A stretch of DNA of 64,000 nucleotides from Klebsiella phage ZCKP1. The translations under genes were made by a program, and so were the position numbers. The stretch lies in sequence record MH252123.1. The stretch is one strand, 5' to 3'. Shown here piece after piece: positions 37,749-48,357 of this stretch. Under the pieces are notes generated by a model. The model had not been told where the DNA came from and ran no database searches. It worked only from the letters and a program-made list of their open reading frames with translations. Position 1 is the stretch's first letter, and the number at the start of each line of letters is the position of its first letter.

Positions 37749-37768
37749 ATGGAAATGCAAATGATAAT
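37748..37768 (+). promoter_or_regulatory. Fur-box-like operator motif copy a (AAATGATAATGATTCGCATTT)
   Basis: matches the Fur consensus core AATGATAATCATT at 12 of 13 positions. Confidence 0.45.
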
Positions 37769-37816
37769 GATTCGCATTTAGGTTTATAAATGAGATTGAT
37801 TCTTATTTGATAAGGT

Positions 37817-37837
37817 AAATGATAATCATTCTCATTT
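37817..37837 (+). promoter_or_regulatory. Fur-box-like operator motif copy b (AAATGATAATCATTCTCATTT)
   Basis: contains the perfect 13-bp palindrome AATGATAATCATT. Confidence 0.5.
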
Positions 37838-38471: not shown

Positions 38472-38500
38472 TTGACGTTCCTCACCTGGTAGCGTAGTAT
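38472..38500 (+). promoter_or_regulatory. sigma70-like promoter P0 (TTGACG-N17-TAGTAT) opening the array; long leader, no hairpin
   Basis: seen in sequence. Confidence 0.5.
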
Positions 38501-38635
38501 TCATCTTGTCGAGGGGGGCGCGGCACAACGACAATAAACAACAGGAGGGCGCAATGTAGGACGGGCAAAGGTGAGGATCTCCATAATCCACCGTCCACCA
38601 ACAAAAAACATCATTCATCACCTGGAGTTAAAATC

Positions 38636-38833
38636 ATGGCAACATTGCACATAGTAGCGAAAGCAGGACAAATCAGCGTCGTGGTAAACGGTTTTACTGA
38701 GTTCAGTCATCCCCAGGATGATCATGAAACGGTTTTATCTTTTATTGATTCCTTGTTAGAAATGGGAGTCATTACAGAAGACCAGCACGCTACAAAATGC
38801 AAGCGCGTTAATCAAATTGCAGGGATAGAATAA
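38636..38833 (+). CDS. array ORF 1, 65 aa
   Basis: promoter P0 plus a 135-nt leader; RBS GGAG. Confidence 0.5.
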   Translation: MATLHIVAKAGQISVVVNGFTEFSHPQDDHETVLSFIDSLLEMGVITEDQHATKCKRVNQIAGIE

Positions 38834-38839
38834 AAAGTA

Positions 38840-38899
38840 TTGACAACAAACAACAACCTGATAAGATGTATCACATAGGGCGGGAAGTGGTTTCCCGCT
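38840..38899 (+). promoter_or_regulatory. promoter and 5' hairpin unit P1: TTGACA-N16-TAAGAT, then GGGCGGGAA-gtggt-TTCCCGC
   Basis: near-consensus -35 and -10; GC hairpin starts 2-3 nt after the predicted +1. Confidence 0.6.
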
Positions 38900-38923
38900 C
38901 GTAACAGAAGAGAGATTATCATC

Positions 38924-39196
38924 ATGGCATCATATAGCGCAACAATGATCGTAGCTGGCACAACTGGTAAACCTATGAGCGGTGGCGGATCTTTCGCTAA
39001 TATCAATATTGACGGGCGTTTATCCCTGGACGCAGCGATCGCCATTGCACGGGAAACATTTAAGAAAGAATGTAATTTCAACAAGCAAGATTATCTCGGT
39101 TTCGCTATTGAAAAAACCGCGCGCTTTGTTGATTATAAAAGCCCGAAAATGGTTGACACTACATTAAAAGCGCAAGATGTAGCGTTTTTGCTTTAA
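38924..39196 (+). CDS. array ORF 2, 90 aa
   Basis: promoter and hairpin unit P1; RBS AGAGAG. Confidence 0.55.
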   Translation: MASYSATMIVAGTTGKPMSGGGSFANINIDGRLSLDAAIAIARETFKKECNFNKQDYLGFAIEKTARFVDYKSPKMVDTTLKAQDVAFLL

Positions 39197-39199
39197 GGC

Positions 39200-39255
39200 T
39201 TGACATTAACGAATAATTTGTTAATATGTTACATAAAGCGGGAATAGTTCCCGCT
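39200..39255 (+). promoter_or_regulatory. unit P2: TTGACA-N16-TAATAT, then AGCGGGAA-tag-TTCCCGCT
   Basis: seen in sequence. Confidence 0.6.
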
Positions 39256-39272
39256 GTTTGTAAGGTGGTAGA

Positions 39273-39530
39273 ATGTTTTACATCAAATTAAAAGGTCACG
39301 TGATCGCGTTCAAAGATAACGCTTTTTACAGATTAGCAAAATATGCGTTAATACATCCCCACTATGTTTATATAAGGGGGCGTGATGAAATAAATATCTT
39401 TGATCAAACAACATGCGAAAACATCGAGATCCGCAAGGTTGGCGTACGTGATTATCGTACATCTTTCTACCCTTGCAAGGATTCAGCAAGTCTTTTTAAA
39501 GTATGCCAATTGTTGAAAAAAGGTGGTTAA
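39273..39530 (+). CDS. array ORF 3, 85 aa
   Basis: unit P2; RBS AAGGTGG. Confidence 0.55.
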   Translation: MFYIKLKGHVIAFKDNAFYRLAKYALIHPHYVYIRGRDEINIFDQTTCENIEIRKVGVRDYRTSFYPCKDSASLFKVCQLLKKGG

Positions 39531-39531
39531 T

Positions 39532-40089
39532 ATGGGCCGCGAATATGTGATCCAGTCTTGGGTAAAACACGAAGCAGATGATCCGCGCATCATTCCCGAT
39601 CATCTTATCGATGAATCCACGGGATATAGCGGTGAGCAAATAGGTAACAGATCAGCACGTAGTAACGGCAACGTAAAAGCGCGCTATGTGCGCCCTGGTT
39701 GGCTGGCAAATGGTAACGCTGATTTATCCAGCGCGGGAGATCCTAGCGACGGCGCGAAAGATAATCCCTTGTACAAAGTTGATCCGGCTTTTCGTGTCCT
39801 GGATGAATACCCCAGCAAGATAGCGGCGCTTGATGAAGCTCTGGAAAGTAAGCGCATCACCTGGACCGCTTACAACATGGCAAAAAACGTACTTGATGGT
39901 AAGCTGATCCAGGCTGAAAGAAAATTAGCCAAAATTGCAGCCATAGCCCAGGAGGAAGACGAGGAGACAACGGAAGAGGAAGAGTACGAAGAGATCCCGC
40001 CGTTGTTGTGTGTTGATGCTTTTCCTGATTATCAGCCGACAGAGGAAGAAAAAAGGATCGCGCTAGAAAACTTTGAAAATAGTCTTTGA
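39532..40089 (+). CDS. array ORF 4, 186 aa, with a strongly acidic C-terminal tail (EEDEETTEEEEYEEIPP)
   Basis: start refined to the ATG after AAAGGTGG; no promoter of its own, so co-transcribed with ORF 3. Confidence 0.5.
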   Translation: MGREYVIQSWVKHEADDPRIIPDHLIDESTGYSGEQIGNRSARSNGNVKARYVRPGWLANGNADLSSAGDPSDGAKDNPLYKVDPAFRVLDEYPSKIAALDEALESKRITWTAYNMAKNVLDGKLIQAERKLAKIAAIAQEEDEETTEEEEYEEIPPLLCVDAFPDYQPTEEEKRIALENFENSL

Positions 40090-40143
40090 CATATCGCCGC
40101 CACTGGCATAATATTTACCACGTAGGGCGGCAATGGTGCCGCT
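40086..40143 (+). promoter_or_regulatory. unit P3: TTGACA-N17-TAATAT, then AGGGCGGCAATGGTGCCGCT
   Basis: seen in sequence. Confidence 0.6.
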
Positions 40144-40171
40144 CATAGTGAAATTATGCAAGAGGTTTACA

Positions 40172-40267
40172 ATGATTAATAAAGAAAATAGCTTGACGGT
40201 TGGAACGATTAACGCTATCATTTTCGCCGTTCCATTTTGGGTTGTAGTAGCGGCTATTATTTTCTAA
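40172..40267 (+). CDS. array micro-ORF, 31 aa hydrophobic peptide (MINKENSLTVGTINAIIFAVPFWVVVAAIIF)
   Basis: sole ORF downstream of unit P3; RBS AAGAGG. Confidence 0.4.
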   Translation: MINKENSLTVGTINAIIFAVPFWVVVAAIIF

Positions 40268-40276
40268 AAAATATTC

Positions 40277-40337
40277 TTGACAACGTTTTTTAATCTGATA
40301 AGATGTATCACATAGGGCGGCGGAATACTTCCCCGCC
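40277..40337 (+). promoter_or_regulatory. unit P4: TTGACA-N16-TAAGAT, then GGGCGGCGGAAtactTCCCCGCC
   Basis: seen in sequence. Confidence 0.6.
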
Positions 40338-40358
40338 AAAACAAAAAAGGGTAACACA

Positions 40359-40721
40359 ATGAGCAAGCAAATCAATACTATCATGTTTAATCTGGTATCT
40401 TTCCGCGATGATATGAAAAATTTACCACGTGAAACGGTTGATATTCATGTTTCAGCTTATCGCGCCCTTATTGATATGTTACCGCTAAAACGTGATCAAC
40501 ATGCCGCTAATATGATGCTTAATGCTATGCTTAAAAAGATGATTCAAACGGATCTTACCCTGGCATATGAGTATCAAGGGCGCTTATATGCAACTTACAA
40601 CAGAGCGGTACCTGGTCTGGGAAGTACTGAAGAGTTGCACGGCTTAAACCTGGATCAAAACACTTGGGATAGTATGCGCCGCGTTATGGTATGGGCCGAA
40701 AGCGGTAAAATTTACGAATAA
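40359..40721 (+). CDS. array ORF, 120 aa
   Basis: unit P4; RBS AAAAGGG. Confidence 0.55.
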   Translation: MSKQINTIMFNLVSFRDDMKNLPRETVDIHVSAYRALIDMLPLKRDQHAANMMLNAMLKKMIQTDLTLAYEYQGRLYATYNRAVPGLGSTEELHGLNLDQNTWDSMRRVMVWAESGKIYE

Positions 40722-40727
40722 AAACGG

Positions 40728-40787
40728 TTGACACTGTTTAAAATTCTAGTATAGTTTACCACATAGGGCGGGAAATGGTTTCCCGCC
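40728..40787 (+). promoter_or_regulatory. unit P5: TTGACA-N16-TATAGT, then GGGCGGGAAatggtTTCCCGCC
   Basis: seen in sequence. Confidence 0.6.
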
Positions 40788-40809
40788 AACAATGAAAAAG
40801 GTTATCATC

Positions 40810-41175
40810 ATGGCTATTAATATTAATGTTTCCTCTTATGCTACCCTGGCTAACACGGCTAAAATTGAATTATCCAGCATTGAGGCGGTGCATATTAGCG
40901 CCCGTCGCTGGTTCCAACAGTCCTACGGTAATACATATTTTTCTTTAATGGTTGACGTTGAGATCGGCGGTAAACTGATCGAGGTGGTTAACGTTCCGTT
41001 TCAATATGGCTATGGTGATCATTTTGATACCGTCGCCCTGGAAGAGTTTAGCAAGGTTATCAACCTGGAGGGCAAAGAGTTTTCACGCGGCGCGTATCTT
41101 TCCCGTTTTTGCCGTGATAATGGGATCGCTGTATACAGTCATGCAAGCGATGTTAAACGTAAAAAAGATTTATAA
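40810..41175 (+). CDS. array ORF, 121 aa (MAININV...)
   Basis: unit P5; start refined to the ATG after AAAAAGG. Confidence 0.55.
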   Translation: MAININVSSYATLANTAKIELSSIEAVHISARRWFQQSYGNTYFSLMVDVEIGGKLIEVVNVPFQYGYGDHFDTVALEEFSKVINLEGKEFSRGAYLSRFCRDNGIAVYSHASDVKRKKDL

Positions 41176-41182
41176 AAAGCAT

Positions 41183-41241
41183 TGACAGCACGAATAAAAA
41201 GAGTAAACTGTATTACATAGAGAGCGGGAACACTTCCCGCC
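41183..41241 (+). promoter_or_regulatory. unit P6: TTGACA-N15-TAAACT, then GCGGGAAcacTTCCCGC
   Basis: seen in sequence. Confidence 0.55.
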
Positions 41242-41264
41242 TCACTGAAAAAGAGAGAAAAATC

Positions 41265-41504
41265 ATGGCTAAATCTAAAATGTACAACGGTCACAAAAAC
41301 AGAAATCATTGGAATGTAAGCCTTTGGATTAATAACGATGAATCGTTATACCGGTTGGCCCAAGATTTTATTAACGCTAATGCTAATCGTAATGATGCGG
41401 CGCGGGATATGATGCTTTTTCTGGAACAAACTGGACAAGATAAAACGCCAGACGGTTTCAAATATAGCACTACTGCGATCCGCGCCGCGATGGTTGGAAT
41501 GTAA
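41265..41504 (+). CDS. array ORF, 79 aa
   Basis: unit P6; RBS AAAGAGAGAAAA. Confidence 0.55.
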   Translation: MAKSKMYNGHKNRNHWNVSLWINNDESLYRLAQDFINANANRNDAARDMMLFLEQTGQDKTPDGFKYSTTAIRAAMVGM

Positions 41505-41512
41505 TAAAAACA

Positions 41513-41572
41513 GTTGACAACGTTTAAAATTAGTGTAAGATGTATCGCATAGGGCGGGAAGTGGTTTCCCGC
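41513..41572 (+). promoter_or_regulatory. unit P7: TTGACA-N16-TAAGAT, then GGGCGGGAAgtggtTTCCCGCC
   Basis: seen in sequence. Confidence 0.6.
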
Positions 41573-41595
41573 CAACAACAGAGAGATTAAAGATT

Positions 41596-41823
41596 ATGGC
41601 TATCAATATTGTTCGCGTATCCGGCACCGTTGGCACTTCCCAGGTTATTGCAGTTGTAACAAACAAAAAGATTAATGATGTATGTGAGATCTTGAATAAG
41701 TGGGCTATTGCTAATTTTGGGAAATATGCAAGCGTCGAGTACATCGAATCCTACCAGGTGCCAACCATCAGCCTAACCGATCTCAACGTTGATCGCCTGT
41801 TATGCCTGGATGAATTGATCTGA
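41596..41823 (+). CDS. array ORF, 75 aa (MAINIV...)
   Basis: unit P7; RBS AGAGAG. Confidence 0.55.
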   Translation: MAINIVRVSGTVGTSQVIAVVTNKKINDVCEILNKWAIANFGKYASVEYIESYQVPTISLTDLNVDRLLCLDELI

Positions 41824-41832
41824 AAAAGATTG

Positions 41833-41889
41833 TTGACACCGGAAAGAAAAAGAGTAAACTGTATTACGTAGGGCGGCAATGGTGCCGCT
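41833..41889 (+). promoter_or_regulatory. unit P8: TTGACA-N16-TAAACT, then AGGGCGGCAATGGTGCCGCT
   Basis: seen in sequence. Confidence 0.6.
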
Positions 41890-41913
41890 CACAACAGAAG
41901 AGAGATTATTACG

Positions 41914-42129
41914 ATGGCTAATATCCGCACACTGTTAAAAAATGCAAGTCAAGTTTTATTTTCAGATGACGAGTATTTCAATAAAGACATTACAGGCGTA
42001 AAAAATCTTAAAGATGTAAAGGATGTGATAGGTATTCGCGGATCTTTACGTAAAGGTGACTACTACGGCAATAAAGTACAATATAAATTAAATCAGTCTT
42101 ATGATTTTACTTTGACAATTATTTCATAA
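41914..42129 (+). CDS. array ORF, 71 aa
   Basis: unit P8. Confidence 0.55.
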   Translation: MANIRTLLKNASQVLFSDDEYFNKDITGVKNLKDVKDVIGIRGSLRKGDYYGNKVQYKLNQSYDFTLTIIS

Positions 42130-42135
42130 AACCGC

Positions 42136-42198
42136 TTGCAATCTTAATAAAATAAAGTAAACTGTATTACATCAAGGCGGCGGAATGGTCCACCGCCT
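42136..42198 (+). promoter_or_regulatory. unit P9: TTGCAA-N16-TAAACT, then GGCGGCGGAAtggtCCACCGCC
   Basis: seen in sequence. Confidence 0.55.
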
Positions 42199-42221
42199 AA
42201 CAAAGAGAAGAGGAAAACACC

Positions 42222-42389
42222 ATGATCACTTTCGCTACCCGTGAAGCCGCTCGCAACGTTGCCCGTAAAGTTAACGCCGCCAACCTGGGCGCTACGCTTA
42301 AAGCCCCGGTGAAAGATGAATCAGGCGCGTGGATCTTTCCTGGTCTGCGTCACGCTGATAAGCTAGGCACTTTAAGCCTTAAAAAATAA
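42222..42389 (+). CDS. array ORF, 55 aa (unlisted; MITFATREAARNVARKVNAANLG...)
   Basis: unit P9; RBS AGAGAAGAGGAAAA; start MITFA shared with the next ORF. Confidence 0.45.
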   Translation: MITFATREAARNVARKVNAANLGATLKAPVKDESGAWIFPGLRHADKLGTLSLKK

Positions 42390-42392
42390 TCG

Positions 42393-42430
42393 TTGACTTT
42401 TCGTTATAGCGCCCATTATAAGGCGCTATA
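42393..42430 (+). promoter_or_regulatory. promoter P10: TTGACT-N17-TTATAA with inverted repeat TATAGCGCC/GGCGCTATA overlapping the -10 (operator-like)
   Basis: seen in sequence. Confidence 0.5.
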
Positions 42431-42462
42431 GAGAAGAGAAACACTACTAACAAGGAAACATC

Positions 42463-42684
42463 ATGATCACTTTCGCTATTGTCGCCGTTGTTGCTGGTCA
42501 GGTTTACATAAACGATACATTCACCACAGAAGACAAGGCCGCAGGAGACATAACCGCCGTTTACAATGAGTGCAAGGCAGTAGAAAGGATGTTAGCGCCT
42601 TGTATGCTAATGAGTGAACGCCAGGACGGGATAACAGTGTTTACTAACATTGAGACAGGGTACCAAATGGTAGTAACAAAATAA
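42463..42684 (+). CDS. array ORF, 73 aa (MITFAIVAVVAG...)
   Basis: unit P10; RBS AAGGAAAC. Confidence 0.5.
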   Translation: MITFAIVAVVAGQVYINDTFTTEDKAAGDITAVYNECKAVERMLAPCMLMSERQDGITVFTNIETGYQMVVTK

Positions 42685-42687
42685 AGC

Positions 42688-42744
42688 TTGACACGGATTT
42701 AATTTTCAGTAAACTGTTACACGTAGGGCGGGAATAGTTCCCGC
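42688..42744 (+). promoter_or_regulatory. unit P11: TTGACA-N16-TAAACT, then AGGGCGGGAAtagTTCCCGCT
   Basis: seen in sequence. Confidence 0.6.
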
Positions 42745-42762
42745 TAAAAAGAGAGAAAAACC

Positions 42763-43116
42763 ATGAAAGCACAAAATGCAATTAAAGAGTACATCCTTGC
42801 CGCTATCGATTTTAATGATTACGGTATTACAACCGAAAAAGAGAAGATCGCGGAATTGATGCGCCGTTTTAATTCCGAGTACTGGTACCCTGATAACCAA
42901 TCACGTTTTAATTATAGTATTGTTAAAGCACTTGCATCATGGTTACAAGGTTTGCCATCAGATATTAATATCGCTTTCGAATATTGGGAAATTGATCGCT
43001 TGTTAACATCCTGGGGATACATTAAAGAGAATAGCAGCGATGATAAAATCCAACGAGAAAGGGAAAATTATTGGCTTTATATTGCAGGCGTGATCCTTGC
43101 TTGCTCTTATGAATGA
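42763..43116 (+). CDS. array ORF, 117 aa
   Basis: unit P11; RBS AAAGAGAGAAAA. Confidence 0.55.
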   Translation: MKAQNAIKEYILAAIDFNDYGITTEKEKIAELMRRFNSEYWYPDNQSRFNYSIVKALASWLQGLPSDINIAFEYWEIDRLLTSWGYIKENSSDDKIQRERENYWLYIAGVILACSYE

Positions 43117-43122
43117 TAAACC

Positions 43123-43176
43123 TTGACAATTTTACAAAACAGTTAAAATTAATAATATAGCGGCAATGGTGCCGCT
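43123..43176 (+). promoter_or_regulatory. unit P12: TTGACA (or TTTACA-N16-TAATAT), then AGCGGCAATGGTGCCGCT; the -10 assignment is ambiguous
   Basis: seen in sequence. Confidence 0.45.
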
Positions 43177-43195
43177 CATATAAAGAGGAAACAAA

Positions 43196-43342
43196 ATGAA
43201 TACATCTAATCGCGCAGAAAAAATCCAATCTTCCAAGATCCGCAAGGCCTGGAACGAGGAAGTGATCCGCAAAGGCGACAAGCGCAATAAAACAAAGCGC
43301 GGGAAGAGTGACAAATATAATTGGATGGATTTAGAGGATTAA
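43196..43342 (+). CDS. array ORF, 48 aa, Lys/Arg-rich basic peptide (unlisted)
   Basis: unit P12; RBS AAAGAGGAAAC; followed by intrinsic terminator. Confidence 0.45.
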   Translation: MNTSNRAEKIQSSKIRKAWNEEVIRKGDKRNKTKRGKSDKYNWMDLED

Positions 43343-43348
43343 CATAAC

Positions 43349-43377
43349 AAGGGCGCACCAAGCGCCCTTTCTTTTTA
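43349..43377 (+). terminator. intrinsic terminator T4 within the array (AAGGGCGCaccaaGCGCCCTT plus TCTTTTT)
   Basis: seen in sequence; identical hairpin to T5. Confidence 0.7.
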
Positions 43378-43397
43378 CATGTAGAGGATAAATAAAA

Positions 43398-43583
43398 ATG
43401 ACTTTAAACGAGCTTAAAACAGCCTACAACGCAACGTTAAAAATAGCCGTGCGTTACCGTGACGAATACGGTTTTATTGCGCAGGGCGTGATCCTGGGCT
43501 TTTCTGACGATGGTTTGATCTATGTTGATGCACATCACAACAAGGTTAAACCTGAAAACGTCATTAACATAAAATATCTTTAA
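43398..43583 (+). CDS. array ORF, 61 aa
   Basis: RBS GAGGATAAATAAAA; no promoter of its own (follows terminator T4). Confidence 0.45.
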   Translation: MTLNELKTAYNATLKIAVRYRDEYGFIAQGVILGFSDDGLIYVDAHHNKVKPENVINIKYL

Positions 43584-43589
43584 AAACGG

Positions 43590-43650
43590 TTGACACCATA
43601 ACCGGACCTGTTAAACTGTATTACATCAGGCGGGGGAATAGTTCCCCACC
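43590..43650 (+). promoter_or_regulatory. unit P13: TTGACA-N16-TAAACT, then GGCGGGGGAAtagTTCCCCACC
   Basis: seen in sequence. Confidence 0.6.
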
Positions 43651-43669
43651 ATACAAAAAGGTAAATATT

Positions 43670-43876
43670 ATGATCACCGCAAAACAAGAAAAAATTATTA
43701 TCGACGTTGCAGCCGTTGCCGCTATTGCTATTATTGGATCTTATTATGATACCCGTTTCCCGTCGGCTATGCATGAGATCGCCGCCGTTGCATCGGTTGG
43801 CGTGCTGTTTTACGTTGGTAAACGCTATTTATCACCAATGATTAACAAGCTGACACCGTGGAAAAATAAAGGTTGA
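43670..43876 (+). CDS. array ORF, 68 aa membrane protein
   Basis: unit P13; two TM helices. Confidence 0.5.
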   Translation: MITAKQEKIIIDVAAVAAIAIIGSYYDTRFPSAMHEIAAVASVGVLFYVGKRYLSPMINKLTPWKNKG

Positions 43877-43927
43877 TCCTGTTTTATATTGTGTTATAGT
43901 TATCGTGTAGGGCGGCAATGGTGCCGC
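43873..43927 (+). promoter_or_regulatory. unit P14: TTGATC-N16-TATAGT, then AGGGCGGCAATGGTGCCGC
   Basis: seen in sequence. Confidence 0.55.
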
Positions 43928-43948
43928 GCCCCCTTTGAGGATGAAATC

Positions 43949-44233
43949 ATGAGTAAAGCTAACACCGTGCTAATGTTTTCCCTGGTTAATGATGCCGCTC
44001 GCTTGTCCAACATGACGCAGGAGGGTAACACATTAACGGCAACATTCACCAATAAGCTTAATCGAGTGATCATCATCTCACTGAAAACAGTTAGTAAAGG
44101 CTTTTACTCGTTAGCTTATCATTGGATCACTGATACCAACGAGACAAGCCAAGATTATAGCGCCCCTTTCCCTGAATCAATGGCACGGGAGATCATCGCC
44201 GCCGTTGTAAATGATGGTTTGTTTACTGAATAA
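43949..44233 (+). CDS. array ORF, 94 aa
   Basis: unit P14; start refined to the ATG after GAGGATGAAATC. Confidence 0.5.
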   Translation: MSKANTVLMFSLVNDAARLSNMTQEGNTLTATFTNKLNRVIIISLKTVSKGFYSLAYHWITDTNETSQDYSAPFPESMAREIIAAVVNDGLFTE

Positions 44234-44251
44234 AATAATTTAGAAAAAGGC

Positions 44252-44279
44252 TTGCAATCATTGTCACTATCTTATCAAT
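44252..44279 (+). promoter_or_regulatory. atypical promoter P15: TTGCAA-N16-TATCAA, no hairpin
   Basis: seen in sequence; weak. Confidence 0.3.
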
Positions 44280-44299
44280 CATCTTATAAGGTGCATACC

Positions 44300-44461
44300 A
44301 TGAAAACCGCAGACATTATCAAAGAGATCGCCCTTGCCGCTGACGTTGAGATCGAGGAAGTGATCGCGCTCAATCTTACAGAAAACGATCTGCGCAACTA
44401 TGAAGCGGAAAGCGTGAAAGCAAGCGGCGCGGTCCTGGTGTATGATCCGGCTAACAAGTAA
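44300..44461 (+). CDS. array ORF, 53 aa
   Basis: atypical promoter P15 (no hairpin); RBS AAGGTG. Confidence 0.4.
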   Translation: MKTADIIKEIALAADVEIEEVIALNLTENDLRNYEAESVKASGAVLVYDPANK

Positions 44462-44470
44462 GGGGGTAAC

Positions 44471-44581
44471 ATGAATCCGAAAGATATGCAAGCATGGAAA
44501 GGGTACGACGATCTGAGCGCCTTGCGTAATAAGTCCAGCCGTAACCTTAGACGGTTGGAAGCAAAGAAAAAGAAAAAATAG
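44471..44581 (+). CDS. array micro-ORF, 36 aa basic peptide (unlisted)
   Basis: RBS AAGGGGGTAAC directly after the upstream stop. Confidence 0.35.
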   Translation: MNPKDMQAWKGYDDLSALRNKSSRNLRRLEAKKKKK

Positions 44582-44582
44582 T

Positions 44583-44639
44583 TTGACAAGTCCGCGTAGT
44601 CTGGTAATATGTATCTTGTAGGGCGGCAATGGTGCCGCT
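44583..44639 (+). promoter_or_regulatory. unit P16: TTGACA-N16-TAATAT, then AGGGCGGCAATGGTGCCGCT
   Basis: seen in sequence. Confidence 0.6.
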
Positions 44640-44659
44640 CACAAGAAGAGAGAAAAATC

Positions 44660-44944
44660 ATGAAAATCACAAAAAGCCTAACTAATTATGCAGCACGTCG
44701 CGGATTATGTTTAACCGTTGAAAACTTAGGGAAAGAAGACTTTTTGTGTTTTTGGGAGCTTGAAAATGATTGCGAGTGGATGTTTTCCTATTCTATCTGC
44801 GAAGATCAAAACGGTTGTTTGTTAACCTGGCGCGGTAATATCTATTTACCGGAAGAAATTAAAGAAGAGTTACCAGGTACGATCATGACAGAGAGACAGC
44901 TTAAGGAAGTGATCAATTTTGTAGGGCAAAACATTAAAAAATAA
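44660..44944 (+). CDS. array ORF, 94 aa
   Basis: unit P16; RBS AGAGAGAAAAATC. Confidence 0.55.
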   Translation: MKITKSLTNYAARRGLCLTVENLGKEDFLCFWELENDCEWMFSYSICEDQNGCLLTWRGNIYLPEEIKEELPGTIMTERQLKEVINFVGQNIKK

Positions 44945-44945
44945 T

Positions 44946-45009
44946 TTGACAGTAGGCAAACAACGTAGTAAAGTTTATTACATAGAGCGGCGGAATGGTC
45001 CACCGCTCA
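44946..45009 (+). promoter_or_regulatory. unit P17: TTGACA-N17-TAAAGT, then GAGCGGCGGAAtggtCCACCGCTC
   Basis: seen in sequence. Confidence 0.55.
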
Positions 45010-45029
45010 CAACAGAAGAGAAACAAATC

Positions 45030-45200
45030 ATGATCCCGACTATGTTTTATGTATCGCGCAAAGGTCACAATATTTTTTGGTCTGAAGATTTAAATGAAGC
45101 CATGACGTTTGCCCGTAATCGTGTTGCTATCGGTGGCGTTAACATCACCGTAACCGATGAAAACGGCATTGAATACTATAACGGCGACGATGAAGAGTAA
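45030..45200 (+). CDS. array ORF, 56 aa
   Basis: unit P17; RBS AGAAGAGAAAC. Confidence 0.45.
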   Translation: MIPTMFYVSRKGHNIFWSEDLNEAMTFARNRVAIGGVNITVTDENGIEYYNGDDEE

Positions 45201-45206
45201 TTAATA

Positions 45207-45229
45207 AGGCGGGGAATACTTCCCGCCAC
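45207..45229 (+). other. orphan leader-type hairpin AAGGCGGGGAAtactTCCCGCCAC with no promoter in front
   Basis: same hairpin family as the array leaders; sits directly after the ORF stop at 45200. Confidence 0.45.
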
Positions 45230-45266
45230 GCAGTGAATTTTCCGTTTGGGAAGTAAAAAATAAATC

Positions 45267-45328
45267 TTGACGATAATTTGTTATCTGATAGAATGTATTT
45301 CGTAGGGCGGGGCAATAAGGCAACGCCC
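45267..45328 (+). promoter_or_regulatory. unit P18: TTGACG-N16-TAGAAT, then GGGCG(gggcaataaggcaa)CGCCC (divergent hairpin)
   Basis: seen in sequence. Confidence 0.5.
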
Positions 45329-45346
45329 ATTAATGAGGGTAGAATC

Positions 45347-45451
45347 ATGTTAGAGAAAATTTTCACGGTTGTAATAGTGGGCCTGGCGTTATCGGTTGGA
45401 GTGGTTGCAACTATGGCTAACATGATCCTATCTTCCCACGGTATCGGCTAA
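45347..45451 (+). CDS. array micro-ORF, 34 aa hydrophobic peptide (MLEKIFTVVIVGLALSVGVVATMANMILSSHGIG)
   Basis: unit P18; RBS GAGGGTAGAATC. Confidence 0.4.
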   Translation: MLEKIFTVVIVGLALSVGVVATMANMILSSHGIG

Positions 45452-45461
45452 GGTGAAACAA

Positions 45462-45677
45462 ATGATCACGAATAAGACAGGTAAAACGGAATTTTTACGC
45501 GGCTTGCAAGTTGGTAAACCTGAGATCTGGCATTGTACTAAATCCGCGCATAATGAAATGAAAGATTTTACCGCTACTTTACAACGTGTTAAAATATCTA
45601 TCACACAGAAAAAAGCCTTGTTAGTAGTAGAAAACGAGATCCCGAAAACTATTATTATTGTCGAGCGTACAGCATGA
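45462..45677 (+). CDS. array ORF, 71 aa
   Basis: RBS AAGGTGAAA; co-transcribed with the micro-ORF. Confidence 0.5.
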   Translation: MITNKTGKTEFLRGLQVGKPEIWHCTKSAHNEMKDFTATLQRVKISITQKKALLVVENEIPKTIIIVERTA

Positions 45678-46060
45678 AAACAGAAATCATTATTGAAATC
45701 ATCAACGGTTATAAAGAAGCCTTTATTTTTGCTGAATCAGCAAGGGATCATGAAGGTAATTTTATTGATAACTTAGACGATTATGATTTTTCTCCTAGCG
45801 CGGACGAACGGATCGCCCAGGATGTAACAGCTTTTATTAATGCTAATCTTGCCGCTATCTCTGAGGCAATGAGCGACGGCGCAACAGCCAACCAGATCGG
45901 GAATGATTTACATTTTACCCGTAACGATCACGGCGTAGGCTTTTGGGATCGCCCTGAAATATACACCACTAACACGGCGAACCGCCTAACCAATGCAGCT
46001 AAGTTTATGCCGAACGTGTCGGCTTACATTGGTGAAGATAATTTTATTTATATTGAATAA
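45674..46060 (+). CDS. array ORF, 128 aa
   Basis: ATGA overlap with upstream gene. Confidence 0.5.
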   Translation: MKTEIIIEIINGYKEAFIFAESARDHEGNFIDNLDDYDFSPSADERIAQDVTAFINANLAAISEAMSDGATANQIGNDLHFTRNDHGVGFWDRPEIYTTNTANRLTNAAKFMPNVSAYIGEDNFIYIE

Positions 46061-46066
46061 AAAGTA

Positions 46067-46123
46067 TTGACACAGATCGCCAGTGTGATAATATTTACCA
46101 CGTAGGGCGGCAATGGTGCCGCT
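46067..46123 (+). promoter_or_regulatory. unit P19: TTGACA-N16-TAATAT, then AGGGCGGCAATGGTGCCGCT
   Basis: seen in sequence. Confidence 0.6.
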
Positions 46124-46144
46124 CCCCGAAAAAGGTAAAACATC

Positions 46145-46336
46145 ATGAAAACTATCTCCTACCTGGAATCAAACAACATGTTTTTTGCCCCCGTTGATGA
46201 AATTATCGAGGCTTTAAACAATGAAGAGGGGATCAATGGATTATCTTACGACCAACTTTTACAACTGGTTGCAACAAATGAAAAACTTGCTTACTATGTT
46301 GAAAATTTTGATGAAGCTGTAATCTTTACAAAATAA
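46145..46336 (+). CDS. array ORF, 63 aa
   Basis: unit P19; RBS AAAGGTAAAAC. Confidence 0.55.
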   Translation: MKTISYLESNNMFFAPVDEIIEALNNEEGINGLSYDQLLQLVATNEKLAYYVENFDEAVIFTK

Positions 46337-46339
46337 TCC

Positions 46340-46396
46340 TTGATCTAATCTCTCAGATAACTTATATTTAATGCGTAGGGCGGCAATGGTGCCGCC
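46340..46396 (+). promoter_or_regulatory. unit P20: TTGATC-N17-TATATT, then AGGGCGGCAATGGTGCCGCC
   Basis: seen in sequence. Confidence 0.55.
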
Positions 46397-46414
46397 GATA
46401 ATGAGGAAAACAAA

Positions 46415-46714
46415 ATGGAAACTATCGCTATTGTTACCGTAGAAAAACTGGTTGTTGGTGATGTATTCGCGTTAATGGTGCCTAACAGCAGCAAGCTGGG
46501 CGCTTATGAAGTAATGGATCATAAAAATGAATCATTTGGCGACGGTTGCACAATGGCGGTAAAATCTTTAAGGGATGGAATCATCCGTCAAGCTAACTGG
46601 CACAAAGGGAATCAAGTCGGTTTAATATCAGCTAATTTCTTGCCAGAAGAGCAAACGTTAGACCAACTATCAGGCGGTAAGACGTTAGCCGAACTACTGG
46701 AAACAGCGATCTAA
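46415..46714 (+). CDS. array ORF, 99 aa
   Basis: unit P20; RBS GAGGAAAAC. Confidence 0.55.
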   Translation: METIAIVTVEKLVVGDVFALMVPNSSKLGAYEVMDHKNESFGDGCTMAVKSLRDGIIRQANWHKGNQVGLISANFLPEEQTLDQLSGGKTLAELLETAI

Positions 46715-46721
46715 TCGACAA

Positions 46722-46737
46722 GGGGCGGCAACGCCCC
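46722..46737 (+). other. orphan GC hairpin GGGGCG-gcaa-CGCCCC between array ORFs
   Basis: seen in sequence; no U-tract and no upstream -35/-10. Confidence 0.4.
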
Positions 46738-46767
46738 CATTAAACGCAATAGGAAGAGGATAGACAC

Positions 46768-47058
46768 ATGAAAAAGATGATCGCAGTAGTTGCCCTGGTT
46801 GTTGGTATTAACGCGCCTGTACTGGCTAATGAGTTGCCAGAATCCATCACGCTAACCGATATCAACGCAATAAACCGGATCGGCGTTAATTATCGCCTAT
46901 GCCTTGCCGCTAAAACTTTCCAGGACGGCACGACAGAATACCACGGATTCGAGGGTATCCGCTGCGGTGAGCTTGCACGCGACCTTAAGGAAGATCCAGA
47001 CCTTGAGGCCATACCGATGACCGTAAACGGTAAAGCTTACGTAAACCGCCAACAATGA
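46768..47058 (+). CDS. array ORF, 96 aa exported protein (signal peptide MKKMIAVVALVVGINAPVLA)
   Basis: RBS GGAAGAGGATAG; preceded by an orphan hairpin. Confidence 0.5.
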   Translation: MKKMIAVVALVVGINAPVLANELPESITLTDINAINRIGVNYRLCLAAKTFQDGTTEYHGFEGIRCGELARDLKEDPDLEAIPMTVNGKAYVNRQQ

Positions 47059-47069
47059 GAAAGGTAATC

Positions 47070-47189
47070 ATGACAATGGGGATCATAGTAGCAACGCTGG
47101 CGCTGATCCCCTTCCTGGTTGAATATGTGCTTATTAGTGTTGTCCTGGTAGTCAGTGACTTATTGGAAACGGTTGGCACCTGGTTTTAA
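47070..47189 (+). CDS. array micro-ORF, 39 aa hydrophobic peptide (unlisted)
   Basis: RBS GAGAAAGGTAATC. Confidence 0.35.
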   Translation: MTMGIIVATLALIPFLVEYVLISVVLVVSDLLETVGTWF

Positions 47190-47200
47190 GGAATAATAAA

Positions 47201-47392
47201 ATGAATACAGAACAAGTTAGAAAGGTATTAGCAGCGTTGCGGTATCACAACCATAGCAAGGTAAAGAATGATCCTGATTATGTGGATTCAAGCCTGGAAG
47301 AAGACACATTGCAAGCTATAAGCCATATGCGAGAATTGTTTAAGCGTATGACAGAGAAAAACAGATCTGATTATATAGGTGACGAGATCTAA
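47201..47392 (+). CDS. array ORF, 63 aa
   Basis: RBS AAGGAATAATAAA. Confidence 0.45.
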   Translation: MNTEQVRKVLAALRYHNHSKVKNDPDYVDSSLEEDTLQAISHMRELFKRMTEKNRSDYIGDEI

Positions 47393-47399
47393 AATAGCT

Positions 47400-47456
47400 T
47401 GCACAATGTATCTGATAGTGTAAGATGTATCACGTAGGGCGGCAATGATGCCGCTC
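47400..47456 (+). promoter_or_regulatory. unit P21: TTGCAC-N16-TAAGAT, then AGGGCGGCAATGATGCCGCT (loop variant)
   Basis: seen in sequence. Confidence 0.55.
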
Positions 47457-47476
47457 ACAACTGGAAGGAAAACACC

Positions 47477-47680
47477 ATGACTACAGCTAACCGCCTGATC
47501 GCCGTCCTGAACAAAGCAAAGGCTAACCGCCTGGATGTTCAAATCAAAGAGCAAGCAAATGGCGAGATCCTTGCTACGGTGTCCGATGGCGGTTATGTAT
47601 CGGAATCATTTTTATCAGGGAGCTTAGATCATCTTGTTTGGAAATTAGAAATTATCGTGGAGGATATGCAAATCATCTAA
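47477..47680 (+). CDS. array ORF, 67 aa
   Basis: unit P21; followed by terminator T6. Confidence 0.55.
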   Translation: MTTANRLIAVLNKAKANRLDVQIKEQANGEILATVSDGGYVSESFLSGSLDHLVWKLEIIVEDMQII

Positions 47681-47688
47681 TCTTTACA

Positions 47689-47720
47689 AAAACAGGGCTT
47701 GCTTTTGTCCTGTTTTTTGT
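47689..47720 (+). terminator. intrinsic terminator T6 (ACAGGGCttgcttttGTCCTGT plus TTTTTGTT)
   Basis: seen in sequence. Confidence 0.55.
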
Positions 47721-47855
47721 TATGCTTATTGAACGGGCGGCACTGGCAACGGGGGAGGTAATCACCGGACGACCCCGCTATATATTGATAGCTAACACCT
47801 ATCAAACAACAAAACATCAAAGAGATAAACTATCGAATCTTTACAATTCTACCTA

Positions 47856-47884
47856 TTGACACCGGATCACGCTTACATTATCAT
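47856..47884 (+). promoter_or_regulatory. promoter P22: TTGACA-N17-TATCAT with a decayed hairpin remnant (TAGGGCaaatc)
   Basis: seen in sequence. Confidence 0.5.
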
Positions 47885-47930
47885 TTATCACGTAGGGCAA
47901 ATCATTTTAAACGGTAAACGAGGAATCACC

Positions 47931-48314
47931 ATGAGCAATATCATCAACCTGGCAGCGACTGTAAACGGTAAAGACTTTAACGGCGCTGTAGACCGTGATC
48001 CTATGTGGTGCTTGTCAGTGTTTAAAGGCGACCTGGTTGAAGTTAGAACAACCGAAGGTTATAGCGACGATTATAAATGCGAGATTCATTTACATAATTG
48101 GTACACGGGTAAAACTTATGCGCTGAATCACGCGTTTATCGGAAAAATCGAATATCGTGAGATGATCGACGAAGAAACGGGGCAAGATTTTAGCGAAAAC
48201 GTTTATATTCGTTCAGAAACATTAGCCGAACGTTTGATCGAGAAAATGAAAGCAAAAAATAAAATTAATTTATCTCATTGGATTGATATAACAAACGATC
48301 CAGCTTATCAATAA
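47931..48314 (+). CDS. array ORF, 127 aa; last gene of the array
   Basis: promoter P22; start refined to the ATG after AACGAGGAATCACC; followed by terminator T5. Confidence 0.5.
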   Translation: MSNIINLAATVNGKDFNGAVDRDPMWCLSVFKGDLVEVRTTEGYSDDYKCEIHLHNWYTGKTYALNHAFIGKIEYREMIDEETGQDFSENVYIRSETLAERLIEKMKAKNKINLSHWIDITNDPAYQ

Positions 48315-48328
48315 ATAACATTTCATAC

Positions 48329-48357
48329 CAGGGCGCACCAAGCGCCCTTTCTTTTTG
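48329..48357 (+). terminator. intrinsic terminator T5 closing the array (CAGGGCGCaccaaGCGCCCTT plus TCTTTTTG); duplicate of T4
   Basis: seen in sequence. Confidence 0.7.

Follow-up and report, generated by a model that had tools for sequence, protein, structure and literature searches.

The window, by which we mean the whole 64,000-nucleotide stretch of Klebsiella phage ZCKP1 (MH252123.1) analysed here, is classed as Phapecoctavirus (phAPEC8-like myovirus) and contains a row of tiny plus-strand genes about 10 kb long, most of which have their own module of promoter, hairpin and ribosome site. We count 31 ORFs of 31-185 aa in this array, all on the plus strand, which is near the roughly 32 ORFs of 31-188 aa given in a preliminary description of the sequence:

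38636-38833, +, ORF of 65 aa, phrog_23268, function unknown
38924-39196, +, ORF of 90 aa, phrog_8099, function unknown
39273-39530, +, ORF of 85 aa, phrog_17947
39532-40089, +, ORF of 185 aa, acidic C-terminus, phrog_16605; abuts ORF 39273, without its own module
40172-40267, +, ORF of 31 aa, hydrophobic, without family
40359-40721, +, ORF of 120 aa, phrog_7352
40810-41175, +, ORF of 121 aa, phrog_6246
41265-41504, +, ORF of 79 aa, DUF7249 / phrog_871
41596-41823, +, ORF of 75 aa, phrog_13850
41914-42129, +, ORF of 71 aa, phrog_12266
42222-42389, +, ORF of 55 aa, phrog_13689
42463-42684, +, ORF of 73 aa, phrog_25390; its first 16 nt are also those of ORF 42222
42763-43116, +, ORF of 117 aa, phrog_11100
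43196-43342, +, ORF of 48 aa, basic, phrog_2490
43398-43583, +, ORF of 61 aa, phrog_25271; first gene 3' of terminator 1, without module
43670-43876, +, ORF of 68 aa, membrane-like, phrog_30003
43949-44233, +, ORF of 94 aa, phrog_10737
44300-44461, +, ORF of 53 aa, phrog_35944
44471-44581, +, ORF of 36 aa, phrog_31652
44660-44944, +, ORF of 94 aa, phrog_6147
45030-45200, +, ORF of 56 aa, phrog_20874
45347-45451, +, ORF of 34 aa, hydrophobic, phrog_14631
45462-45677, +, ORF of 71 aa, phrog_5988
45674-46060, +, ORF of 128 aa, phrog_1915; belongs to a very large uncharacterised family
46145-46336, +, ORF of 63 aa, without family; missing in several relatives
46415-46714, +, ORF of 99 aa, phrog_22684
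46768-47058, +, ORF of 96 aa, signal-peptide-like N-terminus, phrog_9845
47070-47189, +, ORF of 39 aa, hydrophobic, phrog_16005
47201-47392, +, ORF of 63 aa, phrog_9599
47477-47680, +, ORF of 67 aa, phrog_14244
47931-48314, +, ORF of 127 aa, Pfam Phage_30_8 (T4 gp30.8 family)

Every array ORF with a PHROG match belongs to a family without assigned function, Pfam matches are limited to DUF7249 (ORF 41265) and Phage_30_8 (ORF 47931, which has other genes in its place in several relatives), and neither an NCBIfam scan of 9 array ORFs nor a PDB sequence search with 6 gave a match. The host-takeover or anti-defence role proposed earlier for these genes thus finds no support in these searches. Compositionally, the array has a GC content of 0.41-0.45 (flanks 0.36-0.40) and a GC3 of 0.428 (against 0.346), with more GCG (16.6 vs 3.7 per 1000 codons), CGC (17.9 vs 6.5) and CTG (18.7 vs 13.3); the claim that it is GC-richer and rich in CTG, GCG and CCG codons is borne out except for CCG, which is scarcely enriched (7.3 vs 6.2).

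Nineteen complete modules, all on the plus strand, span 38.8-47.5 kb. Their layout is TTGACA-N16/17-TAAnnT, a conserved discriminator of 10-11 nt such as GTATCAC(A/G)TAG, a GC hairpin with a folding energy of -12.5 to -16.7 kcal/mol, and a purine-rich leader, left unpaired, before the ATG; below, each starts at its -35 box, and a twentieth copy is the sole module outside the array:

38840-38900, +, module 1: TTGACA-N16-TAAGAT, hairpin 38878-38900, for ORF 38924
39200-39255, +, module 2: TTGACA-N16-TAATAT, hairpin 39237-39255, for ORF 39273
40086-40144, +, module 3: TTGACA-N17-TAATAT, hairpin GGGCGGCAATGGTGCCGCTC, for ORF 40172
40277-40337, +, module 4: TTGACA-N16-TAAGAT, hairpin 40316-40337 (bulged C), for ORF 40359
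40728-40787, +, module 5: TTGACA-N16-TATAGT, hairpin 40767-40787, for ORF 40810
41182-41243, +, module 6: TTGACA-N16-TAAACT, hairpin 41220-41243, for ORF 41265 (DUF7249)
41514-41573, +, module 7: TTGACA-N16-TAAGAT, hairpin 41553-41573, for ORF 41596
41833-41890, +, module 8: TTGACA-N16-TAAACT, hairpin GGGCGGCAATGGTGCCGCTC, for ORF 41914
42136-42198, +, module 9: TTGCAA-N16-TAAACT, hairpin 42175-42198 (C.A mismatch), for ORF 42222
42688-42745, +, module 10: TTGACA-N16-TAAACT, hairpin 42727-42745, for ORF 42763
43123-43176, +, module 11: TTGACA-N15-TAAAAT (or TTTACA-N16-TAATAT), hairpin 43159-43176, for ORF 43196
43590-43650, +, module 12: TTGACA-N16-TAAACT, hairpin 43629-43650, for ORF 43670
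43873-43930, +, module 13: TTGATC-N16-TATAGT, hairpin GGCGGCAATGGTGCCGC, for ORF 43949
44583-44640, +, module 14: TTGACA-N16-TAATAT, hairpin GGGCGGCAATGGTGCCGCTC, for ORF 44660
44946-45008, +, module 15: TTGACA-N17-TAAAGT, hairpin 44985-45008, for ORF 45030
45267-45328, +, module 16: TTGACG-N16-TAGAAT, irregular hairpin GGGCG..CGCCC 45305-45328, for ORF 45347
46067-46124, +, module 17: TTGACA-N16-TAATAT, hairpin GGGCGGCAATGGTGCCGCTC, for ORF 46145
46340-46396, +, module 18: TTGATC-N17-TATATT, hairpin 46379-46396, for ORF 46415
47399-47456, +, module 19: TTGCAC-N16-TAAGAT, hairpin GGGCGGCAATGATGCCGCTC, for ORF 47477
16672-16734, -, module outside the array: TTGACA-N16-TAAGAT, hairpin GCGGGGGGAATAGTTCCCCCGC, 5' of the TerC-family gene 15681-16655

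These counts are far above chance: a strict automatic census of 38.4-48.4 kb yields 17 modules, while 100 dinucleotide shuffles give 0.14 on average and never more than 2; TTGACA-N16-TAANNT is present in 12 copies where 0.44 would be expected, and the 13 copies of RTAGGGCGG, against 0.24 expected, all lie on the plus strand within the array. The reuse of an exact 20-nt leader, noted before, is confirmed by 7 exact copies of GCGGCAATGGTGCCGC, with one further copy at 47439 carrying a single mismatch (GCGGCAATGATGCCGC). Seven modules have a TG-extended -10 box, A-rich tracts lie immediately 5' of most -35 boxes (judged by eye in aligned repeat copies, unquantified), and module 11 (43123) has the common geometry only if its spacer is taken as 15 nt.

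Four more promoter-like sites bring the total to 23, the number claimed in the preliminary description, which had given each of them a hairpin; 19 have one, and these four (38472, 42393, 44252 and 47856) do not. They are listed here with the partial modules and the terminators:

38472-38635, +, first promoter-like site, TTGACG-N17-TAGTAT, leader of about 130 nt, without typical hairpin, before ORF 38636
42393-42431, +, promoter-like site, TTGACT; inverted repeat ATAGCGCC..GGCGCTAT overlaps the -10 region; before ORF 42463
43349-43376, +, intrinsic terminator AAGGGCGCACCAAGCGCCCTT, then a T-run; closes block 1
44252-44280, +, degenerate module, -35 box TTGCAA joined to the 3' terminus of an ORF that has been lost
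45208-45227, +, orphan hairpin without promoter, GGCGGGGAATACTTCCCGCC; indel junction
46722-46737, +, orphan hairpin without promoter, GGGGCGGCAACGCCCC, 30 nt 5' of ATG 46768
47046-47072, +, half-module (3' arm and leader, CCGCCAACAATGAGAAAGGTAATCATG) within the end of ORF 46768
47688-47717, +, terminator-like hairpin between A and T runs, 3' of ORF 47477
47856-47900, +, promoter TTGACA-N17-TATCAT, then truncated GTAGGGCAAA, without hairpin, before ORF 47931
48330-48357, +, intrinsic terminator, then a T-run; closes the array

The terminators at 43349-43369 and 48330-48348, described earlier as two identical copies, are indeed two and are near-identical (97%), and the terminator-like hairpin at 47688-47717 is a third one, absent from that description. 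Comparison with relatives shows that part of the 38472 leader is replaced in them, that site 44252 is the leftover of a 157-bp deletion, that the equivalent of site 47856 in phi92 is likewise truncated and hairpin-less, and that orphan hairpin 46722 is a hybrid of two promoter-less hairpins which border an extra ORF in relatives. The half-module at 47046-47072 is 92% identical to 40783-40808.

Folding energy 3' of promoter-like sites (at least 10/12 matches, 64-kb window) is bimodal: 15 array sites and the minus-strand site at 16734 lie at or below -12.5 kcal/mol, and all other sites lie above -8. With RNAfold, 19/19 module leaders are predicted to fold as a single 5' hairpin that leaves the RBS free. 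The -10 box and core stem are 10-11 nt apart in 12/19 modules as folded; in the other 7/19 RNAfold adds outer pairs, and the same distance is obtained from perfect-stem coordinates. The conserved GGCGG and CCGCC ends are separated by 8 to 12 nt, with variable loops. Among 68 distinct hairpins, in a structural alignment made from per-sequence folds that biases pair counts towards structure, pairing reaches 89.7% of cells, compared with 79.0% after shuffling (0/500 as high), and compensatory double changes occur in 7/11 populated pairs; sliding the partners by 1-3 columns gives 35-64% pairing. In 45 copies the sense hairpin is the more stable, in 16 the antisense is, and 16 are ties, these copies not being independent, and two stem classes have C.A mismatches in the sense strand.

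The architecture is conserved, and the stem sequence is not, across phi92, an rV5-like Vequintavirus and the jumbo phage 121Q. Homologues of ORF 40359 in all three have their own module 5' of the gene, with the -35/-10 pair intact as in the window and stems of GGCGGCGGAA/TTCCCCGCC (window), GGCGGGAAA/TTTCCCGCC (phi92), GGGGCAA/TTGCCCC (Vequintavirus) and ACGGGGG/CTCCCGT (121Q). The refuting outcome proposed earlier, hexamers not conserved where the ORFs are, is not what these genomes show: the hexamers are kept before orthologous ORFs and the hairpin sequence changes.

What might such a hairpin do? It is unnecessary for promoter function, because same-type promoters elsewhere, such as 31010(-), have none. 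A transcription terminator is one reading. A T-run follows none of the module hairpins (0/19), in contrast to the two array terminators (43349 and 48330), which both have one, and the module hairpin is predicted at about +4 to +27 of the transcript, 3-5 nt from its 5' end. Given the missing U-tract and this position, a 5' mRNA stabiliser or insulator is likelier than a terminator. Shared RNA-level control of the cassettes through the common leader is possible, but the variable loops and stems point to a generic structural role rather than to a sequence-specific regulator.

The relatives indicate how the array changes. Relative to nine Phapecoctavirus genomes we find about 16 distinct indel events, and about 19-20 of 30 indel borders fall in a module or orphan hairpin, features that between them make up about 24% of the sequence. 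Three hybrid modules record the crossovers: within shared GTAGGGCGGCAATGGTGCCGC of the hairpin for the 1.7-kb nieznany deletion (modules 14 and 18 as left and right partners) and for the 238-bp indel of P3322 (modules 17 and 18), and in the -10/discriminator block for the 246-bp nieznany deletion (modules 8 and 9). Cassette indels also recur at module 5 (40728; 267 bp) and at site 42393 (310 bp), and cassette order in phi92 is permuted relative to the window. ORF 41265 is 91% identical to the 121Q copy and 88.6% to the rV5 variant copy, values that exceed those in some Stephanstirmvirinae (69.6-80%) and those of some copies within Phapecoctavirus (69.6-98.7%). Selection alone would also favour indel borders at gene boundaries, whichever mechanism acts, and some indels are clearly illegitimate and not module-mediated. 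Still, this genome comparison shows cassettes gained, lost and reordered, by what the hybrid modules mark as recombination between module copies, and the earlier suggestion of PeSL-like cassettes exchanged by recombination is upheld by the concentration of borders in modules, the hybrids and the phi92 order.

We consider it reasonably probable that the array consists of PeSL-like autonomous early expression cassettes holding accessory genes, with the hairpin as a 5' mRNA element and the modules as portable homology. Each near-consensus sigma70 promoter would be served by the host RNA polymerase in unmodified form; where, when and how strongly transcription starts is predicted from sequence, and the proposed immediate-early timing and very high transcription are read from near-consensus sigma70 geometry, with the TG-extended -10 boxes and the A-rich tracts as part of it. 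Transcripts would begin with the GC-rich hairpin, the leader behind it, A/C/G-rich and unstructured, would carry a Shine-Dalgarno site, and read-through from successive promoters to one of the two or three true terminators would yield nested co-terminal mRNAs. At the RNA level the hairpin would most likely stabilise the 5' terminus and insulate it from its context, limiting 5'-end-dependent attack by RppH/RNase E while the RBS stays open, and inside read-through transcripts it could shield processed ends. Emory, Bouvet, Arnold, Bricker and Belasco reportedly found, for ompA and papA, that 5'-terminal stem-loops stabilise E. coli mRNAs, but in the Belasco work the upper limit for protection is reportedly close to the 3-5 unpaired nt predicted here at the 5' end, a point against this role. 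At the DNA level, as the comparison with relatives shows, some 20 copies of a 60-90 bp module provide portable homology, and recombination between them deletes, inserts, replaces and reorders cassettes, the products staying viable because every piece carries its own expression signals. In the phAPEC8/phi92 lineage the array would then correspond to the promoter-early-stem-loop (PeSL) cassettes seen in T4-like phages, in which PeSL-mediated gene shuffling is already known (PMC2839356, PMC4122927).

Against a generic stabiliser speaks the 10-11 nt block 5' of the stem, whose conservation exceeds what that role would require.

Reading the sequence and scanning it establishes 19 complete modules, all on the plus strand, each a succession of -35 box, -10 box, discriminator, GC hairpin, purine-rich leader and ATG, and each named here by the start of its -35 box. 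The -35 box is TTGACA or a variant differing at one or two bases, the spacer is 16-17 nt (15 in one module) and the -10 box is TAAGAT, TAAACT, TAATAT or similar. A conserved block of 10-11 nt, for example GTATCAC(A/G)TAG, then leads into a GC stem of 6-10 bp, which is followed by a purine-rich leader of 13-23 nt and the ATG. Seven modules have TG-extended -10 boxes, and A-rich tracts just upstream of the -35 box are seen by eye, unquantified, in the repeat copies. The preliminary description counted 23 promoters and placed a hairpin after each; we reproduce the count as 19 modules plus four further sites, but these four promoter-like sites have no typical hairpin:

38472, plus strand, promoter-like site without typical hairpin
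42393, plus strand, promoter-like site without typical hairpin
44252, plus strand, promoter-like site without typical hairpin
47856, plus strand, promoter-like site without typical hairpin

The modules are a real, well-supported feature. With a strict automatic definition we find 17 of them in the array (the run of small ORFs at 38.4-48.4 kb) against 0.14 in 100 dinucleotide shuffles, and this census returns one module outside the array, at 16672-16734 on the minus strand, where it precedes the gene for a TerC-family membrane protein (15681-16655). Of the 20 modules in the 64-kb window, 19 fall in the 10-kb array. The motif RTAGGGCGG occurs 13 times against 0.24 expected, every copy on the plus strand of the array, and exact TTGACA-N16-TAANNT occurs 12 times against 0.44 expected. 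When we compute the folding energy of the 35 nt after each near-consensus promoter-like site in the whole window, the values are bimodal: array modules lie at or below -12.5 (their hairpins span -12.5 to -16.7 kcal/mol) and everything else lies above -8, including promoter 31010 on the minus strand, which is of the same type as the module promoters. The remaining inventory agrees largely with what had been proposed. We count 31 small ORFs of 31-185 aa, near the claimed ~32 of 31-188 aa; the two terminators, at 43349 and 48330, are there, differing little from each other (97% identity across 30 nt), and after ORF 47477 comes a third hairpin that looks like a terminator. The array is indeed GC-richer (GC 0.41-0.45 versus ~0.38; GC3 0.428 versus 0.346), and of the CTG/GCG/CCG-rich codon use attributed to it, GCG and CTG (also CGC) are enriched but CCG hardly is.

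In predicted folds, all 19 leaders form a single 5' hairpin with the RBS single-stranded. The leader GCGGCAATGGTGCCGC is present in seven exact copies and one with a single mismatch, and the stems of the window fall into the following classes:

window, stem class GGCGGGAA(A/G)..TTTCCCGCC
window, stem class GCGGCA..TGCCGC, eight copies, one with a loop change
window, stem class GGCGGCGGA..TCCACCGCC
window, stem class GGCGGGGGAA..TTCCCCACC

The same module is found in three further lineages: phi92, with at least 13 copies; the Vequintavirus HeinrichReichert, with for example GGCGGGAAtgtTTCCCGCC and GGGGCAAgacgtTTGCCCC; and the 349-kb jumbo phage 121Q, with for example TTGCAA-N16-TATAAT-gttttACATC-GGTGGGGAAtagTTCCCCACT. 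Promoter geometry is conserved in phi92, Vequintavirus and 121Q, and the orthologues of ORF 40359 in four lineages keep the -35 box, the -10 box and the position of the hairpin and have four different stems. The hairpin is conserved across genera as an architecture, with stems that vary. Because a MAFFT alignment of the modules was unfit for a common structure (RNAalifold recovered merely 3 pairs from it), we counted pairs in a structure-anchored, N-padded layout of 68 distinct hairpins built from per-sequence folds. Pairing cells amount to 89.7%, compared with 79.0% in column shuffles, and none of 500 shuffles reaches the observed value, a figure to be read with the layout being derived from the folds themselves and the hairpin copies being related to one another. 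Controls with slid partners give 35-64% pairing. Double changes occur at seven pairs: one position shows G-C, C-G and U-A, for instance, and two others show A-U and G-C. The sense hairpin is more stable than its antisense in 45 of 77 distinct hairpins and the reverse holds in 16; in two stem classes the sense strand has C.A mismatches, at which phi92 and 121Q have T-A and PsgM04F has C-G. A scan of 36.0-50.5 kb against the curated covariance models of Rfam gives zero matches at E<=1. The predicted +1 is a purine 6 or 8 nt after the -10 box, which would leave a 5' tail of 3-5 nt before the hairpin.

Now we consider how the modules behave among relatives. By nucleotide search the 10 kb of the array match ~260 phage records, and the best matches (94-97% identity) are Phapecoctavirus genomes, namely ECML-183-2, vB_EcoM-P3322, Mt1B1_P17 and tuntematon, a genus that belongs to Stephanstirmvirinae. 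About 20 records labelled 'Campylobacter phage' (MG065650.1, MG065689.1 and others) are 95% identical to the array; they look like mislabelled or contaminant genomes of Phapecoctavirus, Justusliebigvirus or Vequintavirus. When the window is chained collinearly by BLAST to nine Phapecoctavirus genomes, ~16 distinct indel or replacement events emerge, and ~19-20 of 30 borders fall in a module or in an orphan hairpin (a promoter-less copy); modules and orphan hairpins jointly make up about a quarter of the sequence. Several junctions can be read directly. In nieznany the promoter of module 44583 is fused to the leader of module 46340 with loss of 1.7 kb, the switch point lying inside the shared GTAGGGCGGCAATGGTGCCGC, and in P3322, Ro121c4YLVW and Mt1B1_P17 module 46067 is fused to module 46340 in the same manner. 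Modules 41833 and 42136 are fused in nieznany within the shared AAAGAGTAAACTGTATTAC block. Where P3322 has an extra ORF between two promoter-less hairpins, the window has one hybrid hairpin, 46722, and a half-module stands at 47046. Illegitimate events occur too, such as a 157-bp deletion that leaves the degenerate promoter 44252. In phi92 the cassettes (a module with its ORF or ORFs) stand in a different order from that of the window. Recombinants with crossovers inside modules exist, and the content and order of cassettes vary.

The exchange evidently reaches further than one genus. ORF 41265 (DUF7249) has its closer counterparts in 121Q (91% identity) and an rV5 variant (88.6%), against only 80% in phi92 and 69.6% in the Phapecoctavirus Schickermooser. 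In 121Q its homologue stands behind a different hairpin, and the hairpin that the window uses for ORF 41265 precedes another 121Q gene. Judged by these comparisons, cassette exchange crosses phage families. Two otherwise unrelated neighbouring ORFs also share their first 16 nt, ATGATCACTTTCGCTA, at 42222-42237 and 42463-42478, together with a similar leader; since relatives have an extra cassette between ORFs 42222 and 42463, this suggests crossovers within the first codons of the two. At the start of the array, ~113 nt of the long leader before its first ORF (38501-38615) are replaced by ~27 bp in several relatives.

Among known systems, the promoter-early stem-loop (PeSL) cassettes of the T4-like phages RB49/phi1, T4/PST and KVP40/nt-1 come closest (Arbiol et al. 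2010, PMC2839356; Comeau et al. 2014, PMC4122927). In both, small ORFans are preceded by a promoter of early type, near the sigma70 consensus, that is joined to a GC stem-loop and an RBS, and both cluster these motifs, in a hyperplastic region for PeSLs and here among ORFs that match PHROG families of unknown function. Both also show motif-bounded indels between close relatives, recombination between copies being the mechanism proposed for PeSLs, as well as recombinant, chimeric motifs, of which the array of the phAPEC8 lineage displays the hybrids directly. There are also differences. The array belongs to Stephanstirmvirinae, and also to Vequintavirinae and Asteriusvirus, and its modules are demonstrably shared with jumbo phages. 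PeSL stem-loops take five positions, mostly within or upstream of the promoter, whereas the array hairpin has one position, ~10-11 nt after the -10 box and inside the transcript. It lacks a terminator signature by the sequence test, and the array contains promoter-less hairpin-RBS-ORF units.

Other systems resemble parts of this arrangement. Like the stabilisers of ompA and papA, the array has a stable hairpin within a few nt of the predicted 5' end and then an accessible RBS; 5'-terminal stem-loops reportedly stabilise these two E. coli mRNAs (work by Emory, Bouvet, Arnold, Bricker and Belasco). Here, however, ~20 copies serve as a standard part in a phage array, and the predicted 5' tail of 3-5 nt is borderline. 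The host-takeover module in the terminal redundancy of SPO1, the pre-early region of T5 and the class I genes of T7 are driven by strong host-RNAP promoters. They share with the array dense small genes, mostly of unknown function, behind multiple host-type promoters that are strong or, in the array, predicted to be so. The homologous array in the phi92 record abuts the right terminal repeat. To our knowledge no conserved leader hairpin has been described for those clusters.

The array probably works as a set of autonomous early cassettes whose hairpins stabilise the 5' ends of their mRNAs. Host RNA polymerase would then read the near-consensus sigma70 promoters early in infection, and the stable hairpin, predicted to lie 3-5 nt from the 5' terminus and to leave the RBS open, would resemble the stabilisers of ompA and papA. 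With two or three terminators in all, nested read-through transcripts would be expected from these promoters, and the hairpins internal to them may protect processed ends. It is a speculative extension that the early mRNAs of the phage are in this way shielded from phage-stimulated decay. The array as a whole poses the testable question of whether a phage marks and protects its early mRNAs with a 5' hairpin.

Could the hairpins instead end transcription, as terminators or attenuators that insulate each cassette from upstream read-through, in the way that has been proposed, and in part demonstrated, for T4-type PeSLs? A PeSL stem-loop cut lacZ expression in a reporter as strongly as rrnB T1 (PMC2839356), the stems here are GC-rich and intergenic, and the promoter-less copies stand directly after stop codons. 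We nevertheless consider this unlikely: no T-run follows any of the 19 module hairpins or the 2 orphan hairpins, after which the sequence is A-rich, and genuine T-run terminators are present at 43349 and 48330. A GC stem with a U-tract is found at those two sites and, more weakly, at 47688, but not at module hairpins, and with the T-run missing we reject the intrinsic terminator on sequence. Moreover, each hairpin lies downstream of its own promoter, so that an efficient terminator would abort the cassette mRNA before the ORF. The repeats might alternatively act in DNA, as structure-specific recombination sites (cruciform or single-stranded hairpin) at which a phage or host enzyme swaps cassettes, their presence in the transcript being incidental. 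Crossovers do lie inside the hairpin in several events, promoter-less hairpins included, the half-module is broken within the stem, the hairpin accompanies the array promoters and not others of the same type, and the sense versus antisense asymmetry is weak. Yet modules share no longer stretch of identity than the hairpin itself (17-22 nt), which makes ordinary homologous recombination a sufficient account of the crossovers, and one hybrid crosses over in the -10/discriminator block instead. Stems diverge widely between copies, unlike the site of a single enzyme. A parallel would be the attC arrays of integrons, likewise small mobile gene units, each with an imperfect hairpin, that are exchanged between unrelated genomes. 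Integron cassettes are promoter-less, however, whereas array cassettes own promoters; array crossovers are explained by sequence identity, the hairpins are without attC architecture, and neither an integrase nor any other recombinase is found among the flanking genes examined, which lie just upstream of the array:

33512-34651, AAA ATPase gene
34740-36200, protein with five CapR-homology repeats
36748-37290, NADAR-domain protein, a candidate ADP-ribose-removing counter-defence enzyme

We consider a purely DNA-level role improbable. A combined role, as mRNA element and dedicated recombination site by which unrelated virulent phage families trade ready-to-express cassettes, has an equally slim chance in our estimate, and it is with similarly little confidence that Stephanstirmvirinae, Vequintavirinae and the jumbo Asteriusvirus can be named as the partners. 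If true, such a site would give lytic phages their own version of the integron attC system, and it would account for crossovers in promoter-less hairpins, for the half-module broken in its stem, for the restriction of the hairpin to the array and for ORFs shared across families with re-assorted hairpins. Two further readings look poorer still. An operator, through which a dimeric phage or host regulator silences the early promoters, or an RNA site for a sequence-specific regulator, would be suitably placed at +4 to +27 for blocking promoter clearance, and sequence conservation is seen in the outer GGCGG/CCGCC and in the (A/G)TAG before it. But the GGCGG/CCGCC half-sites are spaced by 8-12 nt within one genome, with variable loops, unrelated GC stems occupy the orthologous sites in Vequintavirus and 121Q, and compensatory changes keep pairing and not sequence. 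The reading as a whole is very improbable to us, and the dimeric operator in particular appears unlikely because half-site spacing varies and stems diverge across genera. That the repeats merely record how one promoter region was serially duplicated and gene-converted, the hairpin being functionless, fits the many near-identical copies within the genome, of which GCGGCAATGGTGCCGC is an example, and the swapping of hairpin types at orthologous sites. It is the most doubtful of all, given that hairpins of similar size, stability and position have different sequences in four phage lineages, that double compensatory changes occur and that the RBS is always unpaired. A hairpin promoter of the N4 type for a virion RNA polymerase is unnecessary given the consensus sigma70 boxes.

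The ORFs themselves give little away. PHROG families match 28 of the 30 ORFs scanned out of the 31, every family being of unknown function, and Pfam returns only DUF7249 and Phage_30_8 (the T4 gp30.8 family) for 20 ORFs. Zero matches came from NCBIfam for 9 array ORFs and from a PDB sequence search for 6. The motif GHDFWLTRNGHGxGFWDR marks the uncharacterised and very large family of ORF 45674, which counts at least 2380 representative clusters, and a confident model of this ORF product (pLDDT 97.8) has no meaningful PDB neighbour. As clues to inhibitors of host functions or defences, the array ORFs searched gave no informative family, PDB sequence or fold match, and because these searches were uninformative a role in host takeover or anti-defence stays a guess from context.

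In the literature searched we found no earlier description of the module for phAPEC8, phi92, rV5, Vequintavirinae or Stephanstirmvirinae; the rV5 paper lists 33 promoters and no leader hairpin. No regulatory feature is annotated at the module among the related records listed, four of which give merely 'hypothetical protein'. The modules extend promoter/stem-loop modular shuffling past the T4-like phages to the phAPEC8/phi92 and rV5 groups, whose members are in wide use in phage therapy collections, and also to 350-kb jumbo coliphages, with recombinant junctions backed by direct sequence evidence. They amount to a compact expression part from nature, in which a promoter is joined to a 5' hairpin and an open RBS, with ~20 uses per genome, and the ~31 cassette genes form a fast-turnover accessory set of these phages, a natural place to seek host-interaction or anti-defence functions.

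Genes of the window are encoded on the minus strand as far as ~30.9 kb and, starting at 31.6 kb, on the plus strand, and the array is flanked by two non-coding stretches:

37.3-38.1 kb, non-coding stretch flanking the array
48.36-49.75 kb, non-coding stretch flanking the array

In the phi92 record the homologous array occupies 138.0-147.2 kb, which leaves ~1.1 kb between its end and the direct terminal repeat annotated on the right. Mapped onto the window, the phi92 repeat has a weak match of 62 nt (49467-49529), and on this footing a terminal position of the array in the ZCKP1 genome is plausible. The 1.4 kb at 48360-49750, in which this match lies, is AAC/CAA-rich and without a plausible ORF; it may contain a physical genome end or packaging site. 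Confined to the two flanking stretches is a palindromic motif, AATGATAATCATTCTCAT, at 37760-37836, 48563-48580, 49317-49334 and 49496-49514 (9 matches with up to 3 mismatches against 0.22 expected), which is closely similar to the E. coli Fur box, GATAATGATAATCATTATC. Upstream of the array, a non-coding direct repeat of 72 nt and 82% identity occupies 37509-37580 and 37647-37718, and the tuntematon record has annotated repeat regions in the homologous area.
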